Shown here piece after piece: positions 12,740-32,000 of a stretch of DNA of 32,000 nt. Location of the stretch: the NCBI GenBank assembly GCA_963843975.1, contig CAWJMG010000003.1, positions 2,700,001 to 2,732,000 on the forward strand, written 5' to 3'. Both the position numbers and the translations under genes were made by a program. Numbering within the stretch: position 1 is the first letter of the stretch; the number at the start of each line of letters is the position of its first letter. The notes under the pieces were generated by a model, which searched no databases, was not told the DNA's origin, and saw only the letters and a program-made list of their open reading frames with translations. The DNA is from an uncultured Actinomycetes bacterium. Lineage in GTDB: Bacteria; Actinomycetota; Actinomycetes; S36-B12; CAIYMF01.

Positions 12740-12747
12740 CCCGCCCT

Positions 12748-15438: not shown

Positions 15439-15445
15439 CAGATCA

Positions 15446-15485
15446 GCGCGTGTGGGCCACGGGACTCGCCGTGGCCCACACGCGC
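15446..15485. terminator. 17-bp perfect stem-loop between convergent genes
   Basis: GCGCGTGTGGGCCACGG (15446-15462), loop GACTCG, CCGTGGCCCACACGCGC (15469-15485). It lies between the stop of the acidic-protein gene (15438) and the stop of the minus-strand kinase (15621). Confidence 0.7.
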
Positions 15486-15620
15486 GCGCCTGATGCCCGG
15501 TTGGACCCGGGCGACCATCGCCAGGATGCGCAGCACCAGCCGCGCGGGCCGTGACTCGCAGTGAGACGCCGCCAGGACGCACGGAGGCCGGTCCCCGCTA
15601 CGGGTCAGGCCGTCGGACGC

Positions 15621-16976: not shown

Positions 16977-17596
16977 GTGGTGTCCGTGGCGAGCCGGTAG
17001 CCGACGTTGCGGACGGTCTCGATCAGACCGGCGCCGACCTTGCGCCGCAGCCCAGCGACGCACACCTCCACCAGGTTCGGTGCAGCGTACGGCTCCAGCC
17101 ACACGTCCTCGAGGAGGGCCTGCTTGGCTACGACCTGATCCGGTCGGGCGGCGAGGTAGGCGACGACGTCGTACTCGCGGGCGGTGAGGTCCAGCTCGAC
17201 CCCGTCGAGCCAGGCGCGGCGCCGCGTCGGCTCCAGCCTGACCGGTCCCGACTGCTGCACAGTTGCGGCGCGGTCGATGTGGGTCAGCCTGTTGATCCGG
17301 CAGCGGACCAGCACCGCGTGGACGGTCGAGGCCGGCCTGCCCAGCTCCCCGGCGATCTGGACCGGGCCCAGCCGCTTCTTCCACCGCAGGTGCACGATCC
17401 GACGCTTGACCGGCTCCGGGGTCCGGTTCGGGGAGCGGTGGGGACGGCTGGAACGGTCGATCATCGCCGCGGCCGTCGGGGCCTGACCGGAGCCCGCGAG
17501 CAGGTCCCGATAGCGGTCCGACCACCGCTTGGCGGTCGGCCTGGACACCCGGAAGCAGTCCGCCGCCGCGGCGACCGGCAAGTCCTCCTCCACCAC
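16973..17596 (-). pseudogene. Chimeric ORF: IS481-type transposase N-terminal HTH fused in frame to the OmpR-type winged-helix domain of a truncated response regulator
   Basis: Residues 1 to about 112 (EEDLPVAAAADCFRVSRPTAKRWSDRYR...MIDRSSRPHRSPNRTPEPVKRRIVHLRWKKRLGPVQIAGELGRPASTVHAVLVRCRINRLTHIDRA) match the N-terminal HTH region of IS481-family transposases. Residues about 118-207 (VRLEPTRRRAWLDGVELDLTAREYDVVAYLAARP...NLVEVCVAGLRRKV...TVRNVGYRL) are a Trans_reg_C effector domain. There is no receiver domain and no DDE domain. Junction near 17245-17265. Confidence 0.75.
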
Positions 17597-17786
17597 CAGC
17601 CGACTCGTCAGAAGGTCGTGCTGGCGGGTTCCTTTCCGATTCGACTCTGACCTGCTCCTGGTCTTCTGGCAAACGGCAGCGACGCCATCGCAGACACCGA
17701 GAACCCCTCTCGCCTCCTCCTACTTTGCCGTCCGGGGCGGGTCGACCGAGGGGGCGCCTCTGCTCGTGGCCCGACTCGTTCGCAAA
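17250..17786 (-). mobile_element. IS481-family remnant (left end and 5' part of transposase gene only)
   Basis: See the chimeric ORF. The same frame stays open upstream of 17596 (..NRKGTRQHDLLTSRLVVEEDLPV..) and resembles a decayed IS481 N-terminus without an ATG. The catalytic region is absent. Boundaries are approximate. Confidence 0.55.
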
Positions 17787-17892
17787 TCGACGCAATGACC
17801 TCTCCATGTAGCGACGGTGGTTTCAGCGAGACTGCTGCAACCGGTTGAGCGAGTGGCACAATCCCGGGTAGGGCAAGCAGACAGGGGGCGTC

Positions 17893-18207
17893 ATGGCGCA
17901 GCAGACGGTGGCCACCGCGGGCGCGACCGCGTTGGGCGGTCGGGCGTTGATGGTCGTCGGGGTGGTCGCGGCGTTGCTGGGCGTGTTCGCCTGGGGATGG
18001 GACGTGGACCCGGGCGCCGGCAAGGCGTGGCTGGTCGTGGGTGCGGTGTCCGTGATCGTCGGCTGGTGGGCCGCCCGGTCGGTCGTCAGTTCCGCCGTGT
18101 CGCGCGTGCTCCTCGTGGTCGCGGTGGTGCTCGCGGTCGTCGTGGTCATCGACGCGGTGCAACTCGTGCAGCTGTCCAACCTGCAGCGTGGCGGTTCCCT
18201 CGCCTGA
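17893..18207 (+). CDS. Small membrane protein (3 predicted TM), passenger ORF inside the IS1595 element
   Basis: ATG 17893 follows AGGGGG. GC3 is very high in this frame. Hydrophobic spans: ALMVVGVVAALLGVFAW, AWLVVGAVSVIVGWWAA, VLLVVAVVLAVVVVIDAV. Convergent with the transposase gene. No recognisable family. Confidence 0.55.
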   Translation: MAQQTVATAGATALGGRALMVVGVVAALLGVFAWGWDVDPGAGKAWLVVGAVSVIVGWWAARSVVSSAVSRVLLVVAVVLAVVVVIDAVQLVQLSNLQRGGSLA

Positions 18208-18216
18208 CCACCTTGG

Positions 18217-19288
18217 TCAGCGCACCACGCGACGCCAGGGGCGGCCGGCGTCGGGCTGGGCGAGGCTGCGTGGGTTGCTGCGCTCGGTCGGCGGCTCCGG
18301 ATGGACCTTCCGCTTCTGGCCCCCGATGGCGACGTCGGCGTAGGTGATGGGGTCGGTGCGCACGGCCTGCTCGAGGAGCCGGTAGAACAGAAGGCCTGGC
18401 TTGCGAGCGTGCCTGCGGTTGAACCGGAACTCGAACTCCCAGAGGTACTCGGTCATGTGCTCGCGGCTGACCGAGCCCTGGTGGGTGCCGTGCAGCCACC
18501 GCTTGAGCTGCGCCTGGACGCGGGAGACGGCCGGATACAAGTCGTGGGCCTTGCTGCCTGAGCGCTTGGTGTTGATGGCCACGTGCTCGAAGCCCGCGAG
18601 CGCCTTGGTGAGCGCGCCGTAGGCATCGGTGAGCACCCTGGTCCCGGGCTCGATGTTGTCCAGGAGCACGGCGTTGATGCTCTCCGCCTTGTAGTTCGGC
18701 ATCACCACCAGCCGCGCTCGACCGATGCCCTTGCCAGCGCCGCCGGCTCCGGACCGACCGAGGTTCTCCGCCATCGCCAAGACGATGATGCGGTTGGAGT
18801 GCAGGGACCTGCCCGGGTATCCAGGGAGGTTGCGGCCGCCCACCGTGGTCTCGTCGACCTCGACAACGCCCGAGAAGCTTCTTGCGGTCGGGCATCACCA
18901 TCGCGCGGCGATAGCGGTGGGCCATCATCCACGCCGTCTGGTAGCTGCCCAGGCCGAGCGTGCGCTGCAGCGTCCGCGCCGACACGCCGTTGGCCCTGGC
19001 TGTCATCTCCCACGCGACCCGGAACCACACCGTCAGCGGGGTCCTCGTGCGCTGGAACAGGGTCCCCGCAGTGACCGAACTCCGCGAGCCACATGCACCG
19101 CAGTCGTAGGCACGCCCGTCAGCGCGACGCCAGCCGTGCGCGATAGAGCCGCACGACGGGCAGACGAACTCCAGGTCGCCCCAGCGCAGCCACGCAAGGT
19201 AGTCCAGGCACGCCTCGTCGTCGGGGAACCACGCCGCGAACTCCACGAGGTCGCGCGGGTACTCCTCACCGCCTACGGGATGTGCCAC
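18217..19288 (-). pseudogene. IS1595-family (ISXO2-like DDE) transposase, interrupted by a frameshift
   Basis: The N-terminal frame (track ORF 18146..19288) has the zinc ribbon (FVCPSCGS...YDCGACGS) and reads through to ...HRYRRAMVMPDRKKL. The DDE domain continues in another frame (track ORF 18217..18843), from ..SGVVEVDETTVGGRNLPGYPGRSLHSNRIIVLAMAE on to ...MTEYLWEFEFRFNRR. The shift maps to about 18869-18880, where one extra base in aagcttCtcggg fits. Confidence 0.8.
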
Positions 19289-19572
19289 CTGATCACGGTA
19301 GACACCAACGAATGACCGTCGCTACATGGAGAGGTCATTCGACGCATTGCGAGTTGTTTCGAAGGGGTCATCAACAACGTTGGCCAGTAACGGCTGGTGC
19401 CGTTCCCGCAGGTCACAGGCTGCAGCCATCCGCTTGGTACCGGCCAGGAGTGGGGTCTCACCTGCTCTGTGAGCAATCCGTGAGCAACCGCGTTCGCTAC
19501 GTCGGGATGGTGCGCGCCACTCAGCCAGTCCACAGCCAACGTTGCGTACGGTTCGAGCATGGTCAGTGACGG

Positions 19573-20958
19573 GTGCGCCGCGGTCGGCACCGTGCTGCCG
19601 TGGTAGGCCCCCGTCCCGGGGCGAGGCTTCGCTCCACCTTTGCCGCGACGCTCGTCGTCGCGGTGGCGCTGACGATCGGCGCTGTCGGCATGGTGTTGAT
19701 CCTGCGTGCGTCGTTGACCCAGACGGTCCGGGACTCGGCGCAGCAGCGAGCCAACGACGTAGGGACTTCGGTGGCAGCGGGGGGTGCCGCCCGCGACGCG
19801 ATCGTGGTCGGCAACGTCAGTGAGCGTTCCGTCGTACAAGTGCTCGATCCTCAGGGGACTGTGCTGGTTTCCAGCCCCGAGATCGACGGCGAGCCCGCAC
19901 TGACCTCGGCGCGCCCGGCACCAGGGAGTGTCCAGGTCTCCACCCAGAGGGTCCCGGTGGCTGACCAGGAGTCGTTCGTCGTGGTGTCCCGCGGTGTTCA
20001 CACGCCAACCGGCGATGCGATCGTGGTCGTTGCGCAATCGCTAGACGCGGTGGACGCCAGCGTGACGACGGTCGAACGCCTTCTTGTCCTCGGATTCCCC
20101 GTCGTCCTCCTGGTCGTCGCCGGGTCGGTGTACTACGTCGTCGGCAGGACGCTTCGCCCGGTCGAGGAGATCCGGCGGCGGGTCGCTGCGATCAGCGCCA
20201 CGGACCTTGACATGCGGGTTCCGGTGCCGGCTGCCGACGATGAGGTGGGCCGGCTCGCCCTCACGATGAACAGGATGCTCGATCGGTTGCAGGACTCTCA
20301 GGCCACGCAGCGTCGGTTCGTCGCTGATGCCAGCCACGAGCTGCGCAGCCCGCTGGCGGCCATTCGGGCGACCGTCGAGGTGGGCCTGGAGCATCCCGGA
20401 TCGCAGCCTTGGGACGATGCTGCCCCAGCGGTTCTGGCGGAGACCGATCGGCTCAGCAGGCTGGTGGACGACCTGCTGCTCCTCGCGCGTTCCGACGAGA
20501 TCGAGAGCCCCCGAATTCATCGTGATGTCGATCTCGACGACATCATGATGATCGAGGCAGATCGCCTTGGACGGCTGGGGAAGATCGACGTCTCGGTCGA
20601 TGTCACGCCCGCGCGGGTGGCTGGCGATCGTCAGCAGCTCGAACGGCTGGTGCGCAACTTGTGCGACAACGCCGTGCGTTACGCGACCTCATCGGTCGCT
20701 CTCTCGGTCGGCATGGACGGTGCCTGGGCAGTCCTGGTCGTGCAGGACGACGGACCGGGTATCCCTGTCGCGGACCGAGATCGCGTCTTCGACCGGTTCG
20801 TACGCCTGGATCCGGCCCGGGACCGACTCTCCGGTGGCGCCGGGCTCGGCCTGGCGATTGTCTTCGAGGTGGCGCGCGCTCACGGCGGAACAGCGGCCGT
20901 GGAGGACTCGGCCTCCGGAGCACGCTTCGTTGTGCGCCTCCCCGCAATGAGGACGTGA
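19573..20958 (+). CDS. Sensor histidine kinase (paralog 2), convergent with its presumed regulator
   Basis: GTG start. TM1 (ATLVVAVALTIGAVGMVLIL), sensor segment (VVQVLDPQGTVLVSSPEI...), TM2, HAMP. H-box FVADASHELRSPLAAI, N-box VRNLCDNAVRYA, DDGPGI, GGAGLGLAIV. Clear paralog of 13465..14868. Confidence 0.92.
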   Translation: MRRGRHRAAVVGPRPGARLRSTFAATLVVAVALTIGAVGMVLILRASLTQTVRDSAQQRANDVGTSVAAGGAARDAIVVGNVSERSVVQVLDPQGTVLVSSPEIDGEPALTSARPAPGSVQVSTQRVPVADQESFVVVSRGVHTPTGDAIVVVAQSLDAVDASVTTVERLLVLGFPVVLLVVAGSVYYVVGRTLRPVEEIRRRVAAISATDLDMRVPVPAADDEVGRLALTMNRMLDRLQDSQATQRRFVADASHELRSPLAAIRATVEVGLEHPGSQPWDDAAPAVLAETDRLSRLVDDLLLLARSDEIESPRIHRDVDLDDIMMIEADRLGRLGKIDVSVDVTPARVAGDRQQLERLVRNLCDNAVRYATSSVALSVGMDGAWAVLVVQDDGPGIPVADRDRVFDRFVRLDPARDRLSGGAGLGLAIVFEVARAHGGTAAVEDSASGARFVVRLPAMRT

Positions 20959-21017
20959 CTTCGTCCTAGCGGCGAAGCGAGCTTCCAACGGTTCGGGGAC
21001 CCGGCCCTCAGCTCCGG

Positions 21018-21713
21018 CTACCCACCGTTGTCGGCGAGGCGGTATCCCACCCCGCGTACGGTCTCGACGCCCTGCCGGTGGAACGGCGCGTCGATCTTGC
21101 GGCGCAGGTATCCGATGTAGACCTCGACGACGTTGGAGTCTCCCTCGTAGTTCTCGTCCCACACGGCTGCGAGGATCTCGCTCTTGGTGACGACATCGCC
21201 CTTGCGGCGAAGGAGGAAGTGCAGGAGCCCGAACTCTCGAGGAGTCAAAGCAATCTGCTTGTCTGCCCGAAGCACGTGGCGACGAGCCGGATCCAGAGTG
21301 AGATCCCCGGCTTGCAGGACGGCGGGGCGTTCTGGTGCTCCGCGACGTAGCAATGCGCGCAGTCGCGCCACCAGCACGACGAAGGAGAACGGTTTCGTCA
21401 GATAGTCATCGGCCCCCAGGTCGAACGCGTCCGCCTCGTCGTGCTCGCCGTCCTTGGCCGTGAGCATGAGGACAGGCGTCCAGATCTCCTCGTCACGCAG
21501 GCTCTGACAGACCCGGTATCCGTTCAGCTTGGGCAGCATGATGTCCAGGACGATCACGTCGTAGCTGCCCTCACGGGCCATCCAGAGTCCCTGCTCACCG
21601 TCCCGAGCCACATCGACCTGGAATCCCTCGGCGGCGAGACCACGCTGTACGGCGTCGACCAGCCTCGGCTCGTCGTCGACCAGCAGCACCTTCACCCCAT
21701 CACTGTCTCTCAT
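21018..21713 (-). CDS. OmpR/PhoB-family response regulator (paralog 2)
   Basis: VKVLLVDDE...LDIMLPKLNGY...LMLTAKDGEHDEADAFDLGADDYLTKPFSFVVLVARLRALLRR...LTPREFGLLHFLL...TVRGVGYRL. Near-identical motif strings to 12809..13519. ATG 21713 overlaps the 3' end of the upstream PAP2 gene by 14 nt; the alternative GTG is 21695. Confidence 0.92.
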   Translation of the reverse strand: MRDSDGVKVLLVDDEPRLVDAVQRGLAAEGFQVDVARDGEQGLWMAREGSYDVIVLDIMLPKLNGYRVCQSLRDEEIWTPVLMLTAKDGEHDEADAFDLGADDYLTKPFSFVVLVARLRALLRRGAPERPAVLQAGDLTLDPARRHVLRADKQIALTPREFGLLHFLLRRKGDVVTKSEILAAVWDENYEGDSNVVEVYIGYLRRKIDAPFHRQGVETVRGVGYRLADNGG

Positions 21714-22629
21714 CTGACCTGAGACGACCCTGAGTTCCGATCCGTGGTTGCTGCAGTTGTTCGTTGAGTCGGGGGCCTCGTGACGATCCTGGCCGCAGCA
21801 CTGGCTCTCGCGACGGTCCCAGGAGAATCAGGGCCCCCGTTACGGCCAACACCGAGGCCAGGCCGACAACGTAGAGCGGGCTGGCCGCCTCCCCGAGCTC
21901 GGGACCTGATCGTGTCTGAGGAGCAACTGCGCCAGCGATGACCGCCGCGCCCATCACCGCCCACCAGCCCCACCCTGAGGTCGATGCGGAGAACGGAGCA
22001 CCTACCCGCGACCGTCCCACCGTGACACCCTCTGCCTCGTCCGCCGCCCGCCGGCGTACCAGTGCCGAGTGCCAGGTCACGCCGAGCAGGACTCCGCCGA
22101 CTGCGTCACTGGGGCGATGCCACCCCGCTGCCACGGTGCCGGCGGCAACGAGGCTCACCCAGGCCACGAGAGGTCCCCAGCATCGACGAGCGAGCTTCGG
22201 GTTCAACGTTGATGCCACAGCGAGAGCGAACCCGGTGGCAATAGTCGCGTGCCCGCTGGGGAACGAACCGCCAGCAACGATCTGACCGACCGGCGAAGCG
22301 CCTGCTGCAGTGGGCAGGAAGTGTTTGAGCAGCTCGGCAGACACGACGGCACCGATGACAGCTGCCGCAATCCGCACGGCGGGTCCGCGGCCCTGCCGTC
22401 GATACGTGCGCCAGCTGACTACGAGCAGACCCACGGACAGAGTGACGATCGTGATCGTCGACAAGGCCAGGCGCTCCATCACGATCAGCCCGGATCCGCT
22501 GTCCAACCGGCTGACGAGCGCCGAACGATCCGCCGCAGCGACGCGTGGGACGAACGTGATCAGCGCATAGAGGACGATCAGAGCGACGGCCGAGATCGAC
22601 GCGGTGGCGCGTCGCGAAGGGGACCTCAT
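21700..22629 (-). CDS. PAP2-superfamily membrane protein with degenerate catalytic motifs and extra C-terminal TM region
   Basis: Start taken at MRSPSRR (complement of 22627-22629) inside track ORF 21700..22680. C2 motif FPSGHA is present. C3 has only the H-x3-D part (GWHRPSDAVGG). The C1 K-x6-RP motif is not recognisable (ELLKHFLPTAAG). About 100 extra residues follow with two hydrophobic spans. Same strand as regulator 21018..21713 and overlapping it. Confidence 0.75.
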   Translation of the reverse strand: MRSPSRRATASISAVALIVLYALITFVPRVAAADRSALVSRLDSGSGLIVMERLALSTITIVTLSVGLLVVSWRTYRRQGRGPAVRIAAAVIGAVVSAELLKHFLPTAAGASPVGQIVAGGSFPSGHATIATGFALAVASTLNPKLARRCWGPLVAWVSLVAAGTVAAGWHRPSDAVGGVLLGVTWHSALVRRRAADEAEGVTVGRSRVGAPFSASTSGWGWWAVMGAAVIAGAVAPQTRSGPELGEAASPLYVVGLASVLAVTGALILLGPSREPVLRPGSSRGPRLNEQLQQPRIGTQGRLRSDERQ

Positions 22630-22737
22630 GACCACAGCCTGCGCACTGCACCTGTGGCGACGCTGAGGATCAGCCGTCAAGCCGGCTCGCGTGCGCCGGG
22701 TCTCGGGAAGTCGCGCACCGTGACGATGGATAAGGGC

Positions 22738-22756
22738 CTCTCATGCGCTCTCATGC
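22738..22756 (+). promoter_or_regulatory. Tandem direct repeat CTCTCATGCgCTCTCATGC upstream of acidic-protein gene 2
   Basis: A 9-mer repeated at 22738 and 22748 (10-bp phase), 100 and 90 nt upstream of ATG 22838. A further CTCTCAG sits at 22785-22791. Lies in the PAP2/acidic-protein divergent intergenic region. Confidence 0.4.
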
Positions 22757-22837
22757 CCACCACAGCCCCCGGGGGGCAACGTGTCTCTCAGTCCTCGACA
22801 CCCCGCTCGCGGACCCACGCATCCATCAGGAGTAACC

Positions 22838-23209
22838 ATGAAGCTCACCAAGAAGGGTGTTGCCGGAACTGTCGGCGCCGCCGCCCTGCTCGCCAGCGTC
22901 GGTCTGGGCCTGGGCTCCGTCGCGCAGGCCGCCCCGGCCACCTCGACGATCCTGCCGGCCGTCGCGGCCGTCAGCGCAACCACGGCGGACGCTGAGACCG
23001 CCGACTCGGCGAAGGACACCGACTCCCTCCAGGAAGGCGACCAGACGACGCCGGACACCGGCACGGCTGCCGAGACCGAGTCGACCACGGAGTCCGCCGC
23101 CGGCAGCGAGACCGCGTCGGAGACCGGCCCGTCGGACGGGAACGACGGCGGCCACGCTGACGCCCCCGGCGCCGACGTGAACCACGAGGGCGGTGCGGAC
23201 GAGAAGTAG
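22838..23209 (+). CDS. Small secreted hyper-acidic low-complexity protein, copy 2 (unrecognised family)
   Basis: ATG 22838 lies 6 nt after CAGGAG, inside track ORF 22781..23209. Signal peptide MKLTKKGVAGTVGAAALLASVGLGLGSVAQA. Mature part has 20 D+E vs 2 K (hand count), with T/S/E/D repeats and the end GNDGGHADAPGADVNHEGGADEK. Confidence 0.7.
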   Translation: MKLTKKGVAGTVGAAALLASVGLGLGSVAQAAPATSTILPAVAAVSATTADAETADSAKDTDSLQEGDQTTPDTGTAAETESTTESAAGSETASETGPSDGNDGGHADAPGADVNHEGGADEK

Positions 23210-23217
23210 CCCGCCCC

Positions 23218-23251
23218 GGACGGGACGTCGCCACCAGGCGACGTCCCGTCC
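23218..23251 (+). terminator. 15-bp perfect stem-loop after acidic-protein gene 2
   Basis: GGACGGGACGTCGCC (23218-23232), loop ACCA, GGCGACGTCCCGTCC (23237-23251), 9 nt after the stop. Confidence 0.65.
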
Positions 23252-23501
23252 ACACGTTCACCCCCAACCGCTTTGCCAGTTCCTAACCAGCGAGTGGGTA
23301 CCGTCGAAGGCACGCAAGTCCATCGCCGGGGATACTCGGCCACGCGGTCATCGTGTTGGCACTGACTCGATCGAGGGGCAGCTGGCCGAATCGATCCCAG
23401 GAGAGCCGATGACCCCGATACCTCCCGCGGGTCAGGAACAACCCCCCGTCTTTCACGATGGGCCACTCGCCTCTCCTAGACCTGACCATGACGCACAGCC
23501 C

Positions 23502-23850
23502 GTGAGCGCGACGAGCGTGACATTCACTCGACGTTCGCTCCTGGTCCTCGGCGCCACAGTCGCCTTGAGCGCATGCAGAGCTCACGACACCCGCTCCGGC
23601 GCCGACGCCACCTGTGAAGCCCCGCGACCTCTCGACAGGTTCGGACGACCCAGACACTCAGGACCACCCTTCATCGCGCAGCCCGTCCGCCTCCGACGGC
23701 TCGCGCGACAGCGACCCGCCGTCCACCGCGCCCGCCGACCCGGACACCCAGAACGCCTCAAGCGACCCGGTGTCCGATTCGGGCTCCGACTCCACCGCCG
23801 AGCCGCCGCCGCCCGTGGCCTCTAGCACGCCACAGCCTCAGCCGACGTAG
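23502..23850 (+). pseudogene. Acidic Ser/Asp/Pro-rich lipoprotein gene, apparently frameshifted just after the lipobox
   Basis: In frame 0, VSATSVTFTRRSLLVLGATVALSAC (twin-Arg-like n-region plus lipobox LSAC, 23502-23576) runs on into Arg-rich nonsense. The +1 frame reads from 23569 (..AELTTPAPAPTPPVKPRDLSTGSDDPDTQDHPSS...SDPVSDSGSDSTAEPPPPVASSTPQPQPT, stop 23848-23850; track ORF 23614..23850). One extra base near tgcAgag (23573-23580) would reconcile the two frames. Confidence 0.4.
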
Positions 23851-24080
23851 TGAAGCCATCAAGGGTCCGGGCATCGGGTTCGCTGCGGTGGCCGCGGGTC
23901 GCTTGGTCGGGGTCGACGCGACGCATCTCCGGTGCTCATCACTGTCTTGGCGTTGGTGCTGCTGATCTGGAGCGCGATCCGGTTAGGTGCTCGCGAGTCC
24001 TCGTCGACTGGTGTCGGTGGAGGGGGCTCAGACGCCCACTGGGACTCGTCCTCTGGTGACGCCGTGAAGGTAAGCGGAAG

Positions 24081-24102
24081 GTCTTGAACATGTGTTCAAG
24101 AC
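24081..24102. promoter_or_regulatory. SOS-box-like palindrome GTCTTGAACAtgTGTTCAAGAC
   Basis: 10-bp perfect arms. The core GAAC-ATGT-GTTC fits the GAAC-N4-GTTC LexA (Cheo-box type) consensus of Gram-positive and actinobacterial LexA. Located in a locally AT-richer patch with no convincing ORF on either side. A TGTTCAA half-site recurs at 24139-24145. Confidence 0.4.
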
Positions 24103-24173
24103 CATTACCGACGATGTGCTCACCTATGGTTCTTCGTGGTGTTCAAACCTCACTTCGAGGGTCAGGACCCCTG

Positions 24174-24220
24174 CCGCCCCACCCCGGTCCGTCGTCCCCC
24201 CTCTGACCTGGGTGGGGCGG
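24174..24220. repeat. Hairpin element copy A (CCGCCCCACCC-N25-GGGTGGGGCGG)
   Basis: 11-bp perfect arms with a C-rich loop. Shares the exact 16-mer GACCTGGGTGGGGCGG (24205-24220) with copy B (27882-27897). Further hairpins follow at 24218-24245, about 24272-24300 and 24320-24333. Confidence 0.6.
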
Positions 24221-24787
24221 CTACCTACTCAAGCGCGGGTAGCCGGAACTTGCCGTTGCCCGCGGGGGCACGGCCGAGGTGGGTAAGCCGCCGCCTCGGT
24301 CGCAGCGCATCCGCCTCTGGACGGGTACCCGTCGCCTGGTCCGTTGAGTGGCGGGACCCCATGCCTATCAGCGTCGTCGGGTGCGCAACTGCTCGTGTCC
24401 GTGCAGGCACTGTCACAACTCGACGATGCTTCCGAAGAAGATCGCGTGAACCGGCTCCCCGCAGCCATGGCACTCCAGCGTCAGGTCCGCCGGGCCCTCC
24501 TCCGATCAAGGTGTAGCGATGACGAGCTCATGGGTCGGTCGGGCCGCGTTCGCGTTCTCGGTGGCAAGCCCACGAGGAGCGAGACGACACACGCTGCCAG
24601 GATCGGTGGCGCGGCCAGGCGGATGACATGACTATCGACCTTCGTCTTCTTACCCCCGTGGGTGTCCGCGTCGAACGTTGTCACCCCCTCCGGCTAACCG
24701 GATCAGCGATAGTTGCCGCCGGCTTGAGCGGTAGCGGCAAATTCCGAACAATCGCGAGCGAGGCTTCAGCCCGTCACCCCACGTCGT

Positions 24788-25195
24788 CTAGGGCATCGAC
24801 AGGCCGGCGAGCCGGTGCAAGGCCTGGAGGCCTTCAGGTGTCCCGGGCCAGTGCCGTCGCAGCGCGTCGCCACCGGCGCGGCGCACGACCGATCTCAGCA
24901 CGACCGCGACCAGGATCGCGTCGTCGGCGTAGCCCAGGACGGGGATGATGTCTGGCACTAGATCGAATGGCAGCAGTAGGTAGCCGACCAGTAGCCACAA
25001 CCGCACCCGCACACCGGCCGGGAGCGACCGGTCCCGCGCCAAGCGCGACACCAACCGCAGCGTGTCCGGTAGCAGCCGCATCGCCTCACCCGCGGTCGCC
25101 TCGGCCGGTCGCTGCCACCACAGCACGGTGATCAAAGCCGCCCACAGCAGCAGCAGACCCGCGACTACGCCGACTACGACCTGCCACCAGTTCAC
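24788..25195 (-). CDS. DUF1232 (YkvA-like) membrane protein
   Basis: Track ORF. N-terminal TM, then LLVGYLLLPFDLVPDIIPVLGYADDAILVAVVL, the conserved core of DUF1232. Confidence 0.8.
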   Translation of the reverse strand: MNWWQVVVGVVAGLLLLWAALITVLWWQRPAEATAGEAMRLLPDTLRLVSRLARDRSLPAGVRVRLWLLVGYLLLPFDLVPDIIPVLGYADDAILVAVVLRSVVRRAGGDALRRHWPGTPEGLQALHRLAGLSMP

Positions 25196-25611
25196 CGGCT
25201 TTACTCCTCACGCGGTTCGACGCCCCTCGTCCGCCCGATGGTGTCAAGCATCCGGGCGAGTGGGAGCCCGCTGGTCACAGGCACATCCTGCGGGAGTTGC
25301 CGACCTTGATGCGCCTGGATGAGTTCAAGGCCTCGCGGGCGGCGACGGGTGGGCGAGACGGGGCGTGGTCGGTCGCGAGCGTGCGTCCGTGACCGGGTGC
25401 CGTGAATGATGGGGTCTTCAGGTCGAAGGACTCCGAAGGTCGCTGCGCAGCCGTTCCGTGACAACTCACGCGGTCAGCCCCTCATGCGCGAGGCCCAGAC
25501 TCGCGCACGCCACGGGGACCGCCACACCGTGACAGTGCCGCGTCGGTGCTCGCTTTGCGAGCGATAGCGAAGCCTCTACGGCGCGCCGCGGAGCGGATAG
25601 GACTGTGCCAT

Positions 25612-25914
25612 CTACCCGAGCGACATGGGTGAGCTCCACTCCCCGTCCACCCACCGAGGCTCGCCCTCCAGTAGTGGCGCCAGACGTGCGAGCCAGAAAG
25701 CTTCTTGCGCAGGGTCGTCGGACAGTGCCTGGTAGGCCTCTCGGTCAGAGAAGCGCGCCCAGTTGATCACTGTCAGTCCGTCGTCGCTGTAGAGGACTCC
25801 AGCGTCGACGAACCCGGTGATGTGGGGCGCGCGTTCACGCAGCCAGTCGTCGAAAGCAGCCTGGATCTCTTGGCGGTTGGATTTCGTGGTGGCGATCATC
25901 GTTGTGCCGTACAT
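25612..25914 (-). CDS. ABM/Dabb-fold (antibiotic biosynthesis monooxygenase-like) small protein
   Basis: Start taken at MYGTTMIATT inside track ORF 25612..25944. About 100 aa with the pattern ...FDDWLRERAPHITGFVDAGVLYSDDGLTVINWARFSDREAYQAL..., compatible with a ferredoxin-like ABM domain. The assignment is tentative. Confidence 0.5.
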   Translation of the reverse strand: MYGTTMIATTKSNRQEIQAAFDDWLRERAPHITGFVDAGVLYSDDGLTVINWARFSDREAYQALSDDPAQEAFWLARLAPLLEGEPRWVDGEWSSPMSLG

Positions 25915-26287
25915 GGGGTCACCGTCTGGGATCGGGCCGCGCACAGCAGCCGAGACTCACAGCCGGCGCGACAGGCAAGATCTGACTCCCGCACGCTACG
26001 CCCCTGCGCTTGGGCTGCGAAAGCCCCGAAAGACGGCCAACGAACCACGGCTCGGTGTGGGGGCTCCGGGAGGCGCTTCGGAAGGATTCGACACCCCGGC
26101 TGGCAGCGCAGTCCTCAGGTGTTGGAGGCGCCCGCGTTACGGGAGATCTCGGATGCCTCGACGACCTTTGAACTCAGGGGTGCGACATGTCGATCCGGCT
26201 GCTGCACATGGATTTCACACCTGCTGTTGACCCTGCGATGACTCGATAGCGGGGACCGCATTACCCAGGGTTGCCTAACCTCGCGGC

Positions 26288-27139
26288 ATGACCTCCTCCC
26301 CCAGCACTTCCCTTGCGACGCGTCAGTTGCTGAACAAGGTCCCCGAGATCACCGTGGTGTTCTGGGTCATCAAGATCCTGTGCACCACGGTCGGGGAGAC
26401 CTTCGCCGACCTGCTCAACGAGAAGCTGGGCCTAGGGCTCACCCTGACGACGTACGTCATGGGGACGTTCCTGGCGCTGATGCTGATCGTGCAGTTCTCA
26501 TACCGCCGCTACGTGCCCTCGGTGTACTGGACCGTCGTGGTGCTGCTCAGCGTCGTCGGCACGCTGATCACCGACAACATGACCGACAACTTCGGCATAC
26601 CGCTGGCGACGTCGACGTTGCTCTTCGCTGCCGCTCTCGCTGTCACGTTCGTGGTCTGGTACGCCGTCGAAGGAACCCTGTCGATCCACAGCATCACCTC
26701 GATCCGGCGCGAGGTCTTCTACTGGCTCACAATCCTGTTCACCTTCGCCCTGGGCACCGCCGCCGGCGACCTGGTCGGGGAGAAGTTCGGCCTGGGCTAC
26801 CTGTGGTCCGTCGTGCTGTGGGGGTCGCTGATCACGGTCATCGCGGTGGCGCACTCCCGGTTCGCCCTCAACGCTGTCCTGGCGTTCTGGTCCGCCTACA
26901 TCCTCACCCGCCCGCTGGGTGCCTCGATCGGGGACCTGCTGTCCCAGAAGCCGGTCGACGGCGGACTCGGCCTGGGCATCCTGAAGATCAGCGTCGTGTT
27001 CCTGCTGACCATCGCTGCGCTGGTCGGCTACCTCACCAGGACCCGCGCGGACGTCACCGAGTACCACCTCTCACCCGAGGACGACGCTCTCTTGGACCAG
27101 CAGGACACCACCGCGGCTCCTGCGCCCCGCATCGCATGA
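26288..27139 (+). CDS. COG4705-like polytopic membrane protein with four internal repeats
   Basis: KVPEITVVFWVIKILCTTVGETFADLL is the hallmark N-terminus of this family. The unit [FY]W-x(8-10)-G-x(3-4)-D recurs four times: VVFWVIKILCTTVGETFAD, SVYWTVVVLLSVVGTLITD, VFYWLTILFTFALGTAAGD, LAFWSAYILTRPLGASIGD. Stop overlaps the next start (ATGA 27136-27139). Confidence 0.8.
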   Translation: MTSSPSTSLATRQLLNKVPEITVVFWVIKILCTTVGETFADLLNEKLGLGLTLTTYVMGTFLALMLIVQFSYRRYVPSVYWTVVVLLSVVGTLITDNMTDNFGIPLATSTLLFAAALAVTFVVWYAVEGTLSIHSITSIRREVFYWLTILFTFALGTAAGDLVGEKFGLGYLWSVVLWGSLITVIAVAHSRFALNAVLAFWSAYILTRPLGASIGDLLSQKPVDGGLGLGILKISVVFLLTIAALVGYLTRTRADVTEYHLSPEDDALLDQQDTTAAPAPRIA

Positions 27140-27828
27140 GCGGCCCAACTGCCGTTGCAGGCCATGTCCGGCTGCAGCCACAGGCGCTGCTCGAGCACGC
27201 ACGCCGGGCATGGCCCGTCCTGCTTGTCGCGTCTTCGGCTGCGGTGATCCTCGCGGGACTCACGGACGCCGTCGGCGAGCACGACGGCGTGACCGCAGTC
27301 GACCGGCCTGTCGCCGCCTGGTTCGCCGCGCACCGAACCTTCGCGCAGGGCAGCCTCGGGCTCCAGCTCGCGCACGCCACCTCACCTGCCGTCCTGATCG
27401 CACTGGTGCTGCTCACCGCCGTCGTCCTGCTGCGACGAGGCCTTCGCAGCGAAGCGCTCCTTCTCACCGGTGCGACGGTGGTCGCCTACGCCTCCGGTGC
27501 GGTGCTCAAGTTCGGCGAGCACCGTGCGCGGCCGTCGTCGCCAGTGAACCTGGCGCCTGAGGGTGAGCCGTCGTACCCATCGGGTCACGTCCTGGTCGTG
27601 GCCGTGATCGCCTTCACCGTCGTCGCCCTGGCGTGGTCGCACCTGTCCCGTGCCGGCCGGGTGACGGCCGTGGCCGTCGCCTCGGTCGCTGTCGGGGGCA
27701 TCGCCCTGGACAGGCTGGTCGTGGGGGCGCACTGGCTCACCGACCTTGCCGGGTCTCTCGCCTTGGCCGTGGTCATCGTGAGCGTCGTCATCGCAGCGCT
27801 GCGATTGCTGCCAGAAAAGGCTGCGTAG
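27136..27828 (+). CDS. PAP2-family phosphatase (canonical motifs)
   Basis: This is the last 230 codons of track ORF 26380..27828. C1 KFGEHRARP, C2 YPSGH, C3 DRLVVGAHWLTD (the complete K-x6-RP / PSGH / [SD]R-x5-H-x3-D signature), with about 6 TM. Translationally coupled to the COG4705-like gene. Confidence 0.87.
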   Translation: MSGPTAVAGHVRLQPQALLEHARRAWPVLLVASSAAVILAGLTDAVGEHDGVTAVDRPVAAWFAAHRTFAQGSLGLQLAHATSPAVLIALVLLTAVVLLRRGLRSEALLLTGATVVAYASGAVLKFGEHRARPSSPVNLAPEGEPSYPSGHVLVVAVIAFTVVALAWSHLSRAGRVTAVAVASVAVGGIALDRLVVGAHWLTDLAGSLALAVVIVSVVIAALRLLPEKAA

Positions 27829-27852
27829 CCGGGCCGCCTCCCCAACGCCAGG

Positions 27853-27896
27853 CGCCCCACCCGGGCCCCCGGGGGGAGGTGGACCTGGGTGGGGCG
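27853..27896. terminator. Hairpin element copy B between convergent genes
   Basis: CGCCCCACCC (27853-27862) pairs with GGGTGGGGCG (27887-27896). The inner GGGCCCCC/GGGGGG is also self-complementary. Lies between stop 27828 (+) and stop 28029 (-). Related to copy A at 24174-24220. Confidence 0.6.
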
Positions 27897-28028
27897 GGCC
27901 TTGATCGGACCCCTGAGGAAGGGGCCTTCTACGCGGTTCCGACGTTAGAGCACACCGCAGGAGTGACCGGTGGCGAACTGGCGATTCCAGATCGACTGCG
28001 GAGGTTCGCTCCCGCGAGGGTGCGCGTG

Positions 28029-28481
28029 TCAGTCGTCCGAACCCGAGTCGTCGGAGCCCGAGCCGGAGTCGTCGGACGAGCCGTCGTGGCTGTCTCCGGA
28101 CTGCGAGCCGGCCTGGCCGTTCTCGTGGTCACCGTCGTCCGTGGCCTGCTCGCCCTGGTCGTCGTCACCCTGCGCGTCGGCGTTCTCGCCCTGGTCGTCG
28201 GACTCCACAGACTGGCTGGCAGCGGGCTCGGCAGTCTCCGCCTGGTTGCTGCTCTCGACCGCGTCCGGGGTATCGGACACCTCTGGGGTCTCGGCGGCGT
28301 CGGGGGTCTTGGAGACCTCAGGGGACTCAGACTCGGTCTGGTCAACCTCGGGAATGGAGGTGGCCACCACGTCGGGGGTCGACGAGACCCGCGGGGTGTC
28401 GGCGTGGCTGGCGGCGAACGCAGCCGTCGAGCCGAGCAGCACGCCGGCAACGGCGAGGGGAACAACGAGTTGCAGCTTCAT
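28029..28481 (-). CDS. Small secreted hyper-acidic low-complexity protein, copy 3 (unrecognised family)
   Basis: Track ORF. RBS GAAGGA lies 7 nt upstream. Signal peptide MKLQLVVPLAVAGVLLGSTAAFA. Mature part has 36 D+E vs 2 K+R (hand count). Short repeats: PEVS[KD]TPDA, DDQGE, SDDSGSGSDDSGSDD. Confidence 0.72.
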   Translation of the reverse strand: MKLQLVVPLAVAGVLLGSTAAFAASHADTPRVSSTPDVVATSIPEVDQTESESPEVSKTPDAAETPEVSDTPDAVESSNQAETAEPAASQSVESDDQGENADAQGDDDQGEQATDDGDHENGQAGSQSGDSHDGSSDDSGSGSDDSGSDD

Positions 28482-28559
28482 GGTGGTCCTTCGCGTTGGG
28501 GGTCGAGTCCTCTCTGCTCAGCATCGGCTGGCGGCAGTGGGTAACCAGCCAACGGGCAT

Positions 28560-28587
28560 CCAAGATCCGTCCAAGAGGTCGCCAAGA
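28560..28587 (-). promoter_or_regulatory. Three CCAAGA (gene orientation TCTTGG) direct repeats at exact 11-bp phase
   Basis: CCAAGA at 28560, 28571 and 28582. In the orientation of gene 28029..28481 this reads TTCTTGGcgacCTCTTGGacggATCTTGGatgc, 79-106 nt upstream of its ATG, in the least GC-rich part of the intergenic region. Confidence 0.45.
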
Positions 28588-29016
28588 ACCGAATATCGAC
28601 GCCCACGACACCTCGCGGACGTCGAGCACGGCCTGGGTCCGGCGGCCAGGCGCCAGCCCGCCGTTCGAACGAGCGAGATGTGGCTGGGGGCCGGGGGGCG
28701 TGACGAGGCCACTTTGTCCAGATGACGGTCGGTGGTCCGAGTGACGCGCGAGCAGGCGAGTGGTTCTCGTCGCCGATCTGCCACCCGTCGGGGCTGATCT
28801 ACATCCCGGGCATGCAGAGTGGAACGGCGTCACCGAGCGGCCCCATCATTCTCATCCCCTCGACCCAACGATCACGATCGTCAGCGCGGACTCCTCTGGC
28901 TCCAAGGAGCGGCGGGCCGCTGACGGCGCGCTGTCGAGGCCGTACGCCGCGCATCTTGGAGGTGTGGATGATCTCGCGCCCAGCGCGCCCAGCGCGCCTG
29001 GTGGTGCTGGGTCGTG

Positions 29017-32000
29017 ATGTCTTTGGCGCGTATGTCCGCGGGCGCGGGGTACCAGTACCTGTTGCGCCACACCGCGTGTGGTGATGTGCAACGAGACCCT
29101 TCGACGCCGTTGACGGCGTACTACACCGCGTCGGGCTATCCGCCCGGCTCCTGGTACGGCGCCGGGCTTGCCGTCCTCGGGATCGCGTCCGGCGCAGCCG
29201 TGACCGAGGTAGGCATGGCCCGTCTCTACGGCCACGGCCAGCACCCCACTAGCGGAACGCCGCTGGGCCGCCCCTACTTGGCGTTCCGCAGCCAGGCGCA
29301 GCGCATCGCCGACTCCGTCGCGGCGCTGCCGGAGTCGATGACGGACTCCGCCCGGGCTGCGGCGGTCGAGGCGATCACCCGGTTGGAGGCCGCACGGAGG
29401 CCGCGTGTCGCGGTTGCCGGGTTCGATCTCACGTTCACTTCACCGAAGTCGGCCAGCGTGCTGTGGGCGTTGGCCGACCCGGACGTTCAGGCCCTCGTGG
29501 TCGCCGCGCATCGGGCTGCGGTCCGCGACGCGCTCGCGTTCCTGGAGGACCGGGCGCTGTTCACCAGGATCGGGCACAACTCGATCGCCCAAGTCCCGAC
29601 CCGCGGGATGGTCGCTGCCCTGTTCGATCATTGGGACACCCGCACCGGCGACCCGAACCTGCACACCCATGTCGTGGTGGCGAACAAGGTCCAGGGCCTC
29701 GATGGGGTGTGGCGGTCCCTGGACTCCCGGGCCCTGCACCACGCCGCGGTCGCGGTGTCCGAGCTCTACGACAACCTGCTCGCCGACCACCTCACGACCG
29801 CGCTCGACCAGAACACCGGCCACCGGGCTGGGTCCTCGTGGGGGTGGCGGGATCGCGGACCGCGGCGCACCCCGGCCTTCGAGCTCGACGCCGTTCCCGA
29901 CGACCTACTCACCGAGTTCTCAACCCGATCGGCGGCGATCGCCACCGCGATGACCGACGCCCTGGTCGACTTCCACGCCGCGCACGGACGCGGACCGAAC
30001 CGGGTGGAGACGACCCGTCTGCGTCAGCAGCTGACCACCGCGACCCGCCCCGCCAAGACGATGCGCCCGCTGCCCGAGCTAATGGCATGGTGGCGCGAGC
30101 GAGCCCGGCGCCTGCTGCGCCGCGCCCCGCACCCGCTCCTCGCCCCCGCGTGGAGCAGCCAGCACGCGACACCGGCGTTCACCGCCGCCATGGGTCGTAG
30201 TCGCGTCGGAGTCCGTCACGATACTGACGGAGTCGCCGGGCCAGTCCGTCACGGACTCCGTCACGGGACCCTGACCAGCGACGATACCTCAGCCGTCGGC
30301 AGCCAAGGCTGGCGCGGCACGGCACGATCCGGCGGGATGCTCCGCAGCCGGCTGCACCCACGCTCCGCCCACACAGCCCGTCCGAGCGTCTCCGACGACG
30401 TTGTCGAGCACCTCGCCGCAGTAGCCCTGGACGCGGTACTGGCGAGGCGCTCGACGTGGACCCGGTGGAACCTGCTCGCCGAGGCCGCGCGCGCCACCCG
30501 CGGTCTGCGGCTACCGAGCGCGGCGGAGCGGATCGCCTTGCACGACCGCGTCTGCGCGACCGCCCTTGCCGGCTGCATGCCGTTGACCGCGCCGGACCGG
30601 TGGACCGTGCCGGAGGGGTGGCGGCGCCCCGACGGCACCACAGTGTTCGACCGACCCGACGAGGATCGGTTTAGCCACAGGGTCATCCTGGACGCGGAGG
30701 CCCGCCTGCTGGCCGCCGCCGCCGACCAGCACGCCCCCGGCGTGGACGAAACGGTCGCCCGCAGCGCAGCGGTCAAGGTCCAGTCGCCGCGCCACCCCGG
30801 GGGTCGCCACGTGCGCCTCGCCAGCGATCAGGTCGACGCCGTCATCGGCATCGCCACCTCGCGGCGGCTCCTGGATGTCCTGGTCGGTCCGGCGGGGACC
30901 GGGAAGACCACGACCCTGCGCGCCCTGCGCACCGCGTGGGAGAACGTGCACGGGCCCGGCACGGTGCTCGGGCTGGCACCATCGGCGGCTGCGGCGCACG
31001 AGCTCGCCGACGCCCTCGGCGTAGCGTGCGAGAACACCGCGAAGTGGCTGCACGAGTCCACCGGCCCCGCCGCCCAGCAACGCGCCGCGGTGCGCGCGGG
31101 CCTGCTCGAACGGCGCACCGCCGCGACCAGCGCGGGCGACGCGCGCACGGTGCGGCGGGTCGACACCGCGCTGGCCCGACTCGACGCGCAGCAGGACCGG
31201 TGGCGGCTGCGGCCCGGGACGCTGCTCGTCGTCGACGAGGCGTCCCTGGCCGGCACACTGGCCCTCGACGACCTGGCCGCCCAGGCTGCTGCCGCGGGGG
31301 CCAAGCTGCTGCTCGTCGGCGACCACCACCAGCTCGGCGCCGTCGACGCGGGCGGCGCGTTCGCCCTGCTCGCCGCCACCGGCGCCGCGCACCGGCTGCG
31401 GTCGCTGTGGAGGTTCACCCACCGGTGGGAGGCCCACGCCACCCGGGCCCTGCGCGAGGGGCATCCGGGCGCCCTTGCGACCTACGACCGTCACGGCCGC
31501 ATCCATGAGGGAGGGCCCTTGGACGTCCTCGACGCTGCCTACTCCGCGTGGGCGAGCGACAGCCGCGGCGGCGCGTCGGCGCTGCTGCTCGCCGCCGATG
31601 GCGCGACGGTCGCCGCTCTCAACCACCGTGCCCGCACCGACCGCGTCGCCGCCGGTCTCGTCGACGATACGACCACCGTCCGCCTCGCCGATGGACTGCA
31701 AGCCGGCACCGGGGACCTCGTCGTCACGCGCCGCAACGACCGCCGCCTGGCCACCGCCGCGGGCGGCCATGTCCGCAACGGCACCCGCTGGACGCTCACG
31801 ACCATCCACGCAGACGGCAGCGCCGACCTCGCGGCGCAGTCCGGCACCGACCCAGAAGGCACCGGCCAGGACCGTGTTCGTGTGCCTGCCGACTACGTGC
31901 GCCGCCACCTCGAGCTCGGCTACGCCACCACCATCCATCGGGCCCAAGGACTCACCGTCGACCACACCCATCTCCTGGCCACCGAGGGCATGACCCGCGA
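29017..32000 (+). CDS. MobF-family (TrwC/TraA-like) conjugative relaxase with C-terminal RecD-like helicase, 3' end outside window
   Basis: Hand translation of frame 1 from ATG 29017 is open to base 32000, so it is absent from the ORF track because it has no stop. MSLARMSAGAGYQYLLRHTACGD...LTAYYTASGYPPGSWYGAGL (Tyr motif), FDHWDTRTGDPNLHTHVVVANKVQ (3-His motif), Walker A VLVGPAGTGKTT (about 30877-30912), LLVVDEASL, and GYATTIHRAQGLTVD near the end. Confidence 0.92.
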   Translation, partial: MSLARMSAGAGYQYLLRHTACGDVQRDPSTPLTAYYTASGYPPGSWYGAGLAVLGIASGAAVTEVGMARLYGHGQHPTSGTPLGRPYLAFRSQAQRIADSVAALPESMTDSARAAAVEAITRLEAARRPRVAVAGFDLTFTSPKSASVLWALADPDVQALVVAAHRAAVRDALAFLEDRALFTRIGHNSIAQVPTRGMVAALFDHWDTRTGDPNLHTHVVVANKVQGLDGVWRSLDSRALHHAAVAVSELYDNLLADHLTTALDQNTGHRAGSSWGWRDRGPRRTPAFELDAVPDDLLTEFSTRSAAIATAMTDALVDFHAAHGRGPNRVETTRLRQQLTTATRPAKTMRPLPELMAWWRERARRLLRRAPHPLLAPAWSSQHATPAFTAAMGRSRVGVRHDTDGVAGPVRHGLRHGTLTSDDTSAVGSQGWRGTARSGGMLRSRLHPRSAHTARPSVSDDVVEHLAAVALDAVLARRSTWTRWNLLAEAARATRGLRLPSAAERIALHDRVCATALAGCMPLTAPDRWTVPEGWRRPDGTTVFDRPDEDRFSHRVILDAEARLLAAAADQHAPGVDETVARSAAVKVQSPRHPGGRHVRLASDQVDAVIGIATSRRLLDVLVGPAGTGKTTTLRALRTAWENVHGPGTVLGLAPSAAAAHELADALGVACENTAKWLHESTGPAAQQRAAVRAGLLERRTAATSAGDARTVRRVDTALARLDAQQDRWRLRPGTLLVVDEASLAGTLALDDLAAQAAAAGAKLLLVGDHHQLGAVDAGGAFALLAATGAAHRLRSLWRFTHRWEAHATRALREGHPGALATYDRHGRIHEGGPLDVLDAAYSAWASDSRGGASALLLAADGATVAALNHRARTDRVAAGLVDDTTTVRLADGLQAGTGDLVVTRRNDRRLATAAGGHVRNGTRWTLTTIHADGSADLAAQSGTDPEGTGQDRVRVPADYVRRHLELGYATTIHRAQGLTVDHTHLLATEGMTR

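Follow-up and report, generated by a model that had tools for sequence, protein, structure and literature searches.

What is the role of three copies of TCTTGG, spaced exactly 11 bp apart, in front of a gene for a small acidic secreted protein in an uncultured Actinomycetes bacterium? The repeats lie in a stretch of 32,000 nucleotides of contig CAWJMG010000003.1 (assembly GCA_963843975.1, positions 2,700,001 to 2,732,000 of the forward strand), referred to here as the window, which has a G+C content of 69% and encodes three such proteins (acidic genes 1, 2 and 3, the repeats in front of them being numbered as copies 1, 2 and 3). A first-pass annotation had proposed that phased repeats precede all three genes as candidate OmpR-type operators, and that the genes form a regulon of paralogous regulators encoded in the window. 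Comparison with related loci indicates that the copy-3 array (28549-28588) is probably a binding site for PhoP-like OmpR-family regulators with the recognition helix NVVEVY(V/I)GYLR. Two response regulators of the window, RR1 and RR2, carry this helix, so that a matching regulator is encoded on the same element.

Read on the minus strand, 28549-28588 is TTCTTGGcgacCTCTTGGacggATCTTGGatgcCCGTTGG. The three TCTTGG cores occupy 28560-28588 with an exact 11-bp period, and each unit consists of a 7-bp half-site and a 4-nt spacer, the one-helical-turn direct-repeat architecture of OmpR/PhoB operators. The coordinates of the complementary CCAAGA triplet and its distance from acidic gene 3, as first annotated, were confirmed in the sequence: it lies at -79 to -106 relative to the ATG (28481). 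TCTTGG-n5-TCTTGG with at most one mismatch has two matches where 0.08 are expected, a count reached in none of 100 shuffles. Hexamers tripled at 9-12 bp spacing are expected 0.06 times per window and were observed three times; the remaining two have a 9-bp period and are found at 7129 (inside a transposase gene) and 28975 (in the relaxase reading frame). Because the cores are identical, the spacers between them all differ (cgac, acgg and atgc) and Tandem Repeats Finder (TRF) reports no tandem array at the repeats, they are not a recent slippage duplication. Coding sequence was rejected as an explanation, since the open reading frames (ORFs) overlapping the array lack the coding signature in third-position G+C content (GC3), and so was a known RNA family or tandem-repeat artefact, since Rfam has no family matching the region and TRF gave no array. 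The array is real, non-coding and beyond chance.

A phylogenetic footprint of such repeats is found at locus 1, which comprises acidic gene 1, the sensor kinase gene HK1 and RR1 (Table 1). HK1 has relatives of 50-84% identity in a large protein collection, and five distinct HK1-orthologous loci were compared, with kinase identities of 84% (L091), 65% (L174), 63% (L092), 61% (L176) and 56% (L178). A small acidic secreted protein gene is divergent from the kinase gene in all five. The convergent, overlapping kinase/regulator pair is kept in L091, L092, L176 and L178, and in L091, L176 and L178 the regulator gene comes last after ABC_tran, two ABC-2 permeases and a gene of about 200 aa, as in the window. 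CTCTCAG-n4-CTCTTGG is the most conserved block of the acidic-1 promoter across the five loci; TCTCAGC and CTCTT.G are invariant in six acidic-gene promoters (those of the window and the five loci), and the neighbouring columns vary. In these promoters the repeat blocks are followed, after 11 nt, by CANNGT. On the kinase side and in the opposite orientation, the window and four of the relatives (L091, L092, L176 and L178) have a conserved nTCTCAG-n4-CTCTCAG, with TA(T/C)(G/C)CT 10 nt after it and the start codon another 7 nt on. The motif also stands before the ABC operon in L091, as at 9474 in the window, before the regulator gene in L092 and L179, and before further genes in L174 and L176. 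The geometry is fixed: repeats, 10-11 nt and TANNNT (CANNGT for acidic genes), and, where the gene is that of the kinase or the first of the ABC operon, the ATG another 7 nt away. Sites 9474, 14909 and 14938, like their orthologues, thus lie, as expected of operators, at a fixed distance from a -10-like hexamer and are oriented to the gene. Three-unit arrays upstream of acidic or small secreted protein genes are also present in L092, L176, L178 and L184. The repeats in front of HK1 and of the ABC-RR1 operon mark a predicted autoregulated regulon, and copy 1 is a strongly supported operator candidate.

HK1 and the ABC operon, in which the TANNNT hexamer lies 7 nt upstream of the ATG in a layout kept in relatives, appear to be leaderless. 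This layout supports ATG 14868 as the start of HK1, and not the shorter 442-aa model P0001. The 3' ends of the kinase and regulator genes overlap by 55-61 nt (13465-13519 in the window, 1725-1779 in L091, 7377-7431 in L092, 3433-3487 in L176 and 4374-4434 in L178), an arrangement kept down to 56% kinase identity and reaching 91 nt in L179. Convergence (without overlap data) is also found in the Mycobacteriales loci L011 and L013. Two-component genes are not usually arranged in this way, and the overlap suggests that the two are coupled by antisense transcription or transcriptional interference.

Motif statistics agree with the footprint. An 18-nt matrix was built from 14 sites, all of them in relatives, and its four best matches in the window are at 9474 (27.2 bits), 14938 (24.4 bits), 14909 (22.7 bits) and 28588 (14.2 bits), the last of which corresponds to half-sites 1 and 2 of copy 3; first-order Markov simulations give null expectations of 0.02, 0.18 and 0.88 matches at minimum scores of 18, 15 and 12 bits, respectively. 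Phased half-site pairs number 27 in 145 kb of family loci versus 3 in 1.06 Mb of unrelated kinase loci, i.e. 1.86 versus 0.03 per 10 kb, an approximately 60-fold enrichment, where the unrelated set was obtained with the same kinase query and its members are only remote relatives. Spacing is equally specific, with 25 pairs in family loci at 11 bp against 0-2 at each other spacing from 6 to 16 bp. According to the first-pass annotation, its proposal would be refuted if phased CTCT[CT]NG/TCTTGG pairs were equally common in unrelated or shuffled DNA. They are not: at 10-11 bp, such pairs occur three times in the window where 0.096 are expected (none of 500 simulations) and are absent from the 1.06 Mb of unrelated loci. 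Scans of genomes and metagenomes with HK1 were swamped by generic kinase peptide patterns (best matches at most 48% identity), and their matches were used only as the negative-control set and for L011 and L013.

The repeats also travel with the recognition helix. Nine of ten loci with the helix NV[VI]EVY[VI]GYLR have at least one 11-bp pair, compared with 5 of 128 other loci (Fisher p=5e-10), and four of the five pair-bearing loci without the exact helix have near-variants of it. RR1 aligns to Mycobacterium tuberculosis PhoP at E=3e-51; among solved structures that match RR1, Thermotoga maritima DrrD is best and PhoP second, and PhoP is the best with a DNA complex. PhoP binds as a tandem dimer, which can extend to trimers and tetramers, to TCACAGC-n4-TCACAGC direct repeats in which the 4-bp spacer is strict (PMC4832192; PDB 5ED4/3R0J). 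Its base contacts are made by Asn212, Val213, Glu215, Ser216, Tyr217 and Tyr220, with Ser216 helping to read the A at position 3 through a water molecule (PMC4832192). When the helices are aligned (NVVESYVSYLRRK in PhoP, NVVEVYVGYLRKK in RR1 and NVVEVYIGYLRRK in RR2), the only base-contacting change is Ser216 to Val, and the only change in the motif is A to T at position 3; we infer that the substitution would cause the change in half-site specificity.

The likeness to PhoP extends to the 7-bp direct repeats, the 4-bp spacer (11-bp period) and a near-identical recognition helix. On the other hand, the half-site here is TCTCAGC or CTCTTGG, Ser219 is replaced by Gly as well as Ser216 by Val, the neighbourhood is one of ABC-2 transporter, PAP2, DUF347 and acidic secreted protein genes, and kinase and regulator genes are convergent, not co-transcribed. 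An M. tuberculosis PhoP box proper was rejected because the family consensus differs from TCACAGC; the sites have the same architecture and a related sequence. Orthology of RR1 and RR2 to PhoPR is neither shown nor likely.

Other well known systems resemble these sites to varying extents. In the pho box of Escherichia coli, two 7-bp direct repeats 4 bp apart take over the role of the -35 element, with the -10 hexamer about 10 bp downstream, and PhoB activates its own operon; the family sites here share the repeat layout, the distance to a -10-like hexamer (copy 3 apart) and the predicted autoregulation, but differ in sequence from the CTGTCAT-type pho box, whose signal is phosphate, and often precede leaderless genes. 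In envelope-stress systems of the PmrA/BasR, GraRS and BceRS type, an OmpR-family regulator controls envelope-modifying genes and ABC transporters. These are functional analogues, in that relatives of the present loci carry PAP2, MprF-like (DUF2156), DedA/VTT, UppP and GT39 genes, but there is no sequence-level orthology, the boxes differ and the acidic secreted proteins have no counterpart there. The best NCBIfam matches of RR1, RR2, HK1 and HK2 (a second sensor kinase) are the heavy-metal models TIGR01387/TIGR01386, and metal-resistance genes (ArsR and CDF) are nearby. Nevertheless, membership of the CusRS/CopRS/CzcRS subfamily was rejected on scores of 236.3 (RR1) and 241.4 (RR2) versus a cutoff of 279.2, and of 195.4 (HK1) and 209.7 (HK2) versus 292.55; known CusR/CopR boxes are different sequences. 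A full-text literature search returned no described response-regulator system with a TCTCAG box, and a lead to the MprA box gave nothing usable. In kind, the array would be a standard PhoP/PhoB-type direct-repeat operator, and the module surrounding it is undescribed.

Table 1. Genes and candidate sites of the window, in order of position.
Feature	Coordinates	Strand	Remarks
RR0 regulator and HK0 kinase	562-2393		
ArsR	2943-3344		
CDF transporter	4012-4959		
Mutator transposase	6926-8257		
ABC-RR1-operon-directed site CTCTCAAcgatCTCTCAG	9474-9491	+	best match in window; then 11 nt, TAACGT (9503-9508), 7 nt, ATG 9516
ABC-2 transporter operon ending in RR1	9516-13519	+	
ABC_tran, two ABC-2 permeases, gene of about 209 aa	9516-12739 (end approximate)	+	co-oriented, end just before RR1; probably one operon with it
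RR1, OmpR/PhoB-family response regulator	12809-13519	+	candidate binder
HK1, HAMP-HisKA-HATPase sensor kinase	13465-14868	-	convergent with RR1 (55-nt 3' overlap); divergent from acidic gene 1
HK1-directed site CGCTCAGcatcCTCTCAG	14892-14909	-	then 10 nt, TATCCT (14876-14881), 7 nt, ATG 14868
Acidic-1-directed site CTCTCAGcggaCTCTTGG (copy 1)	14938-14955	+	then 11 nt, CACTGT (14967-14972)
Acidic gene 1	15022-15438	+	secreted protein, two copies of DDGxxxGxDANxNExGHQDA
HK3 and regulator broken by insertion sequence	15621-17719	-	
Broken regulator (RR3)	16976-17719		IS481-type helix-turn-helix fused to Trans_reg_C
IS1595-type transposase genes	18146-19288		separate broken regulator and HK3 from HK2
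HK2 sensor kinase	19573-20958	+	convergent with RR2
RR2, RR1 paralogue (61% identity)	21018-21713	-	candidate binder; follows PAP2 gene
PAP2 gene	21700-22680	-	upstream of RR2 (PAP2-RR2 operon)
Copy-2 repeats CTCTCATgcgCTCTCATgcc, 10-bp spacing	22738-22757	+	weakest candidate
Acidic gene 2	22838-23209	+	divergent from PAP2-RR2 operon
DUF347 and PAP2	26288-27828	+	convergent with acidic gene 3
Acidic gene 3, 150 aa	28029-28481	-	signal peptide, Asp/Glu/Ser-rich tail; GC3 0.85; presumed target of array
Copy-3 unit 4, CCGTTGG	28549-28555	-	degenerate, same 11-bp register; repeat family D2 (22-nt register)
Copy-3 half-site 3, ATCTTGG	28560-28566	-	basis: sequence and repeat counts
Copy-3 half-site 2, CTCTTGG	28571-28577	-	identical to conserved promoter-proximal half-site of acidic-1-type promoters
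Copy-3 half-site 1 (distal), TTCTTGG	28582-28588	-	basis: sequence
TrwC relaxase ORF	from about 28972		

For copies 1 (CTCTCAG-n4-CTCTTGG, -85/-74 of the ATG at 15022) and 2 (-100/-90 of the ATG at 22838), the coordinates, phases and distances to the ATG are as first annotated. To place operator repeats before all three acidic genes was, however, too strong a claim: copy 1 is well supported and copy 3 fits, whereas copy 2 has 10-bp spacing and is not matched by the 11-bp family matrix. A PhoP-like dimer should tolerate the shorter spacing poorly, and copy 2 is a doubtful member of the regulon. Support for it comes solely from an analogue on a Cryobacterium plasmid (L182), where a 95-aa acidic secreted protein gene, divergent from PAP2-RR-HK genes and neighboured by DedA, DUF347, UppP and GT39, is preceded by CTCTCACggtcATCTCATG, 10 nt and TAACCT, an arrangement related to copy 2. 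The wider proposal, of an OmpR-type operator and a regulon of paralogous regulators, holds in substance through the locus-1 footprint, the HK1 and ABC-RR1 sites, the co-occurrence with the helix and the likeness to PhoP, and less directly for copy 3 itself.

Copy 3 is a probable regulon member because its period, its orientation, its distance to the ATG (both of the latter matching the family pattern) and its CTCTTGG proximal half-site fit the family. In the mechanism that we propose, the partner sensor kinase would detect an extracytoplasmic signal and phosphorylate the regulator; regulators would then align head to tail along one face of the helix, each on its own half-site, and RNA polymerase would be recruited to a weak promoter just downstream, activating the gene for the small secreted acidic protein. 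We infer that RR1 or RR2 is the actual binder, that binding activates rather than represses, and that either regulator would also serve an array made up of TCTTGG only.

Several observations weigh against assigning copy 3 to these regulators. Its score of 14.2 bits is only moderately above background, and all of its cores are TCTTGG, which differs from TCTCAG at two central bases, those that the PhoP-type helix reads most specifically (PMC4832192). No TANNNT or CANNGT hexamer stands 10-11 nt downstream of the third or fourth unit, TACCCA following unit 3 at 16 nt and CACTGC (28534-28539) at 20 nt, and a simple sigma-70 scan gave no promoter in the region. No two-component system adjoins module 3 (the DUF347, PAP2 and acidic-3 genes), RR1 and RR2 both being encoded away from it. 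All module-3 copies retrieved are 99.8-100% identical, and the relatives found through the adjacent PAP2 gene lack synteny to the module. Among proteins, this PAP2 has a relative at 87% identity (P0122); the PAP2 of the module itself (PAP2b) has no match among plasmids, where a distant blastn search with the acidic-3 region gave only short, irrelevant matches. A word-index and HMMER search for homologues of acidic protein 3 gave none at E<=1e-3, and DUF347 is too widespread to be a specific marker for relatives of the module. Furthermore, the half-site list was chosen after the family loci had been viewed, a bias that the spacing control and the relatives-only matrix mitigate but do not remove.

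These points could be accommodated if the array were an operator for a different paralogous regulator, preferring TCTTGG and encoded elsewhere, such as a native partner that the DUF347-PAP2-acidic-3 module would have lost at a recombination junction near 28900. The distal half-sites of the family are always TCTCAG-type, the promoter geometry of copy 3 departs from the family norm, the module stands at that junction with no two-component system of its own, and the window does contain regulators with other helices (RR0 and the broken RR3). Yet CTCTTGG is the very half-site conserved proximally in RR1-type acidic promoters, TTCTTGG serves as the first half-site in a related regulon (TTCTTGG-n4-TTCTTAG on plasmid L182), and cross-recognition is expected since RR1 and RR2 share one helix; we regard such a regulator as unlikely. 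That the array has no regulatory function, its 11-bp period having arisen by chance or slippage in what is left of an intergenic region, is less likely again. The lack of diverged relatives among the module copies retrieved, the sigma-70 scan without a canonical promoter and the adjoining gene remnant and junction would suit this explanation, but it has to contend with the expectation for a tripled hexamer given above, with identical cores among differing spacers and no TRF array, and with a core that recurs, about equally far from the start codon, as a conserved half-site in the orthologous promoters of such genes.

The neighbouring relaxase raises a further alternative, in which the array would be a cis site of a mobile element (a site for an accessory protein at the origin of transfer, oriT, of the TrwC relaxase, an iteron or a partition centromere). 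The array lies about 385 bp from the TrwC-type relaxase ORF, adjoins a 13-nt inverted repeat, and consists of phased direct repeats, which are typical of oriT accessory, iteron and partition sites. The acidic-3 module was found on ten short metagenome contigs at 99.8-100% identity. From about 28895-28902 onwards, four of these contigs (L002, L005, L007 and L009) have a sequence other than that of the window, with an unrelated ORF ending ...VPGAQYKAIRVITSLAPRPLV... that is directed towards acidic gene 3 and whose stop corresponds to about 28799. Of this ORF only a 3' remnant (28799-28902) is left in the window, where, as in L004, it adjoins the relaxase side. The remnant indicates that the relaxase is a secondary arrival. 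Since neither the array nor the acidic-3 module is altered in the contigs in which the relaxase flank is replaced, the array belongs to the module, and an oriT accessory site was rejected, nic-like elements having been considered only through the list of inverted repeats. The core motif also occurs in regulator-linked chromosomal and plasmid loci without relaxases, and a cis site of any of these kinds is extremely improbable. Binding by PhoP-like regulators with the shared helix thus remains the reading that we consider probable for copy 3.

Directly upstream of the array in gene orientation, the inverted repeat at 28596-28625 (TCGACGCCCACGA / TCGCGGACGTCGA, 13 nt with a 4-nt loop) may be a terminator-like hairpin of the upstream co-oriented gene. 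About 130 nt upstream of the DUF347 gene, GATCTCGGATGCC (26145-26157) matches GATCTTGGATGCC (28555-28567, unit 3 and its flank) at 12 of 13 positions, a likeness that could reflect a lone half-site, a promoter element common to both, or chance. The 10-mer GATGCTGAGC is common to the acidic-3 leader (28516-28525, minus strand) and the HK1-directed site (14899-14908); this could be what is left of a divergent site or, with a rough expectation of 0.04-0.1, possibly chance.

Related modules are carried by plasmids of Pseudarthrobacter (L184) and Arthrobacter (L185, L192 and L193). In their layout, PAP2 (often followed by MprF-like DUF2156 and VTT/DedA genes) and the regulator gene diverge, regulator and kinase genes converge, and the kinase gene in turn diverges from one for a small secreted protein, after which comes an ABC-2 transporter. 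TCTCAG-n5-TCTCAG is directed at PAP2 in these loci, with a second pair in front of the ABC operon in L185 and L193, and the array before the small secreted protein gene of L184 has a degenerate middle unit. On a Rhodococcus plasmid (L183), which has a PAP2/regulator pair with no annotated kinase adjoining, the units toward PAP2 are 9 bp apart. No phased pairs were found in the Mycobacterium and Rhodococcus plasmid loci retrieved with RR2 (L194-L197), and the motif is thus not universal among RR2-like regulators. It extends to the Mycobacteriales, since TCTCAGccatcTCTCAAcaacgCTCTGC occurs in 11-bp phase at 6062-6090 of a Gordonia paraffinivorans locus (L013), between the regulator gene and a divergent membrane-protein gene. 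In Solirubrobacterales loci (L017, L020, L021 and L023), a common palindrome, GATGAGAAAGCTCATC, is found about 150-190 nt upstream of more distant family regulators, which suggests a related but inverted-repeat operator in that clade; a DUF347 gene is beside the regulator in L017.

The small acidic proteins appear as the output of the system. All three have signal peptides and share about 30% mutual identity, which is mostly compositional, as is the likeness of proteins 2 and 3 to protein 1. Acidic protein 1 has no Pfam or NCBIfam match, and belongs to a small, uncharacterised family of secreted proteins of 100-160 aa with one or two copies of DGPxQGPDANPNEPGHQDA, represented by only 21 clusters at E<=1e-3 among 1.84 billion representatives. 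The product of acidic gene 3, which is identical on 12 metagenome contigs, has no Pfam match, and an exact cluster look-up returned none of the three proteins. The signal is probably metal or cell-envelope stress, as judged from gene content alone and from the report that DUF347/UppP operons are lead-induced in Frankia (PMC4531530).

If the assignment is right, a two-component family that is uncharacterised and travels on plasmids and integrative elements of actinobacteria, beside metal-resistance and envelope-modifying genes, would have its first regulon. As proposed, this would take in the kinase gene, the ABC-regulator operon and PAP2, the last with MprF-like genes downstream of it, together with the secreted acidic proteins, an unstudied small family, as a conserved output. 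As operator consensus we offer (C/T)TCTCAG-n4-CTCT(C/T)(A/T)G, 10-11 nt upstream of the -10 element. The family provides a natural test of how one helix residue (Ser216 in PhoP, Val here) affects half-site specificity, and the current view of OmpR-family regulation is not overturned. More tentatively, it is possible, though we would not yet favour it, that the whole is an undescribed mobile actinobacterial stress module, in which a PhoP-like regulator retuned by Ser216 to Val from TCACAGC to TCTCAGC is combined with the 55-nt convergent overlap, leaderless autoregulated promoters and new secreted acidic, His-bearing repeat proteins. The acidic proteins would then be extracellular metal buffers or co-sensors of the kinase, and the TCTTGG-only copy 3 a variant of low affinity that depends on cooperativity and gives a different threshold of activation.

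The window as a whole looks like the accessory region of a mobile element, and megablast of 12000-32000 against plasmids returned no close relative. About 90-100 nt upstream of HK2, an 11-bp-phased direct repeat of different sequence, GTGAGCAAtccGTGAGCAA (19469-19487), was seen nowhere else. The IS1595-type transposase genes are flanked by CCACCGTCGCTACATGGAGAGGTCATT, at about 17794-17820 and about 19320-19350, which is probably the terminal inverted repeat of the element. Finally, CGCGCCCAG occurs twice in tandem with a 9-bp period at 28975-28992, at the start of the ORF containing the relaxase.

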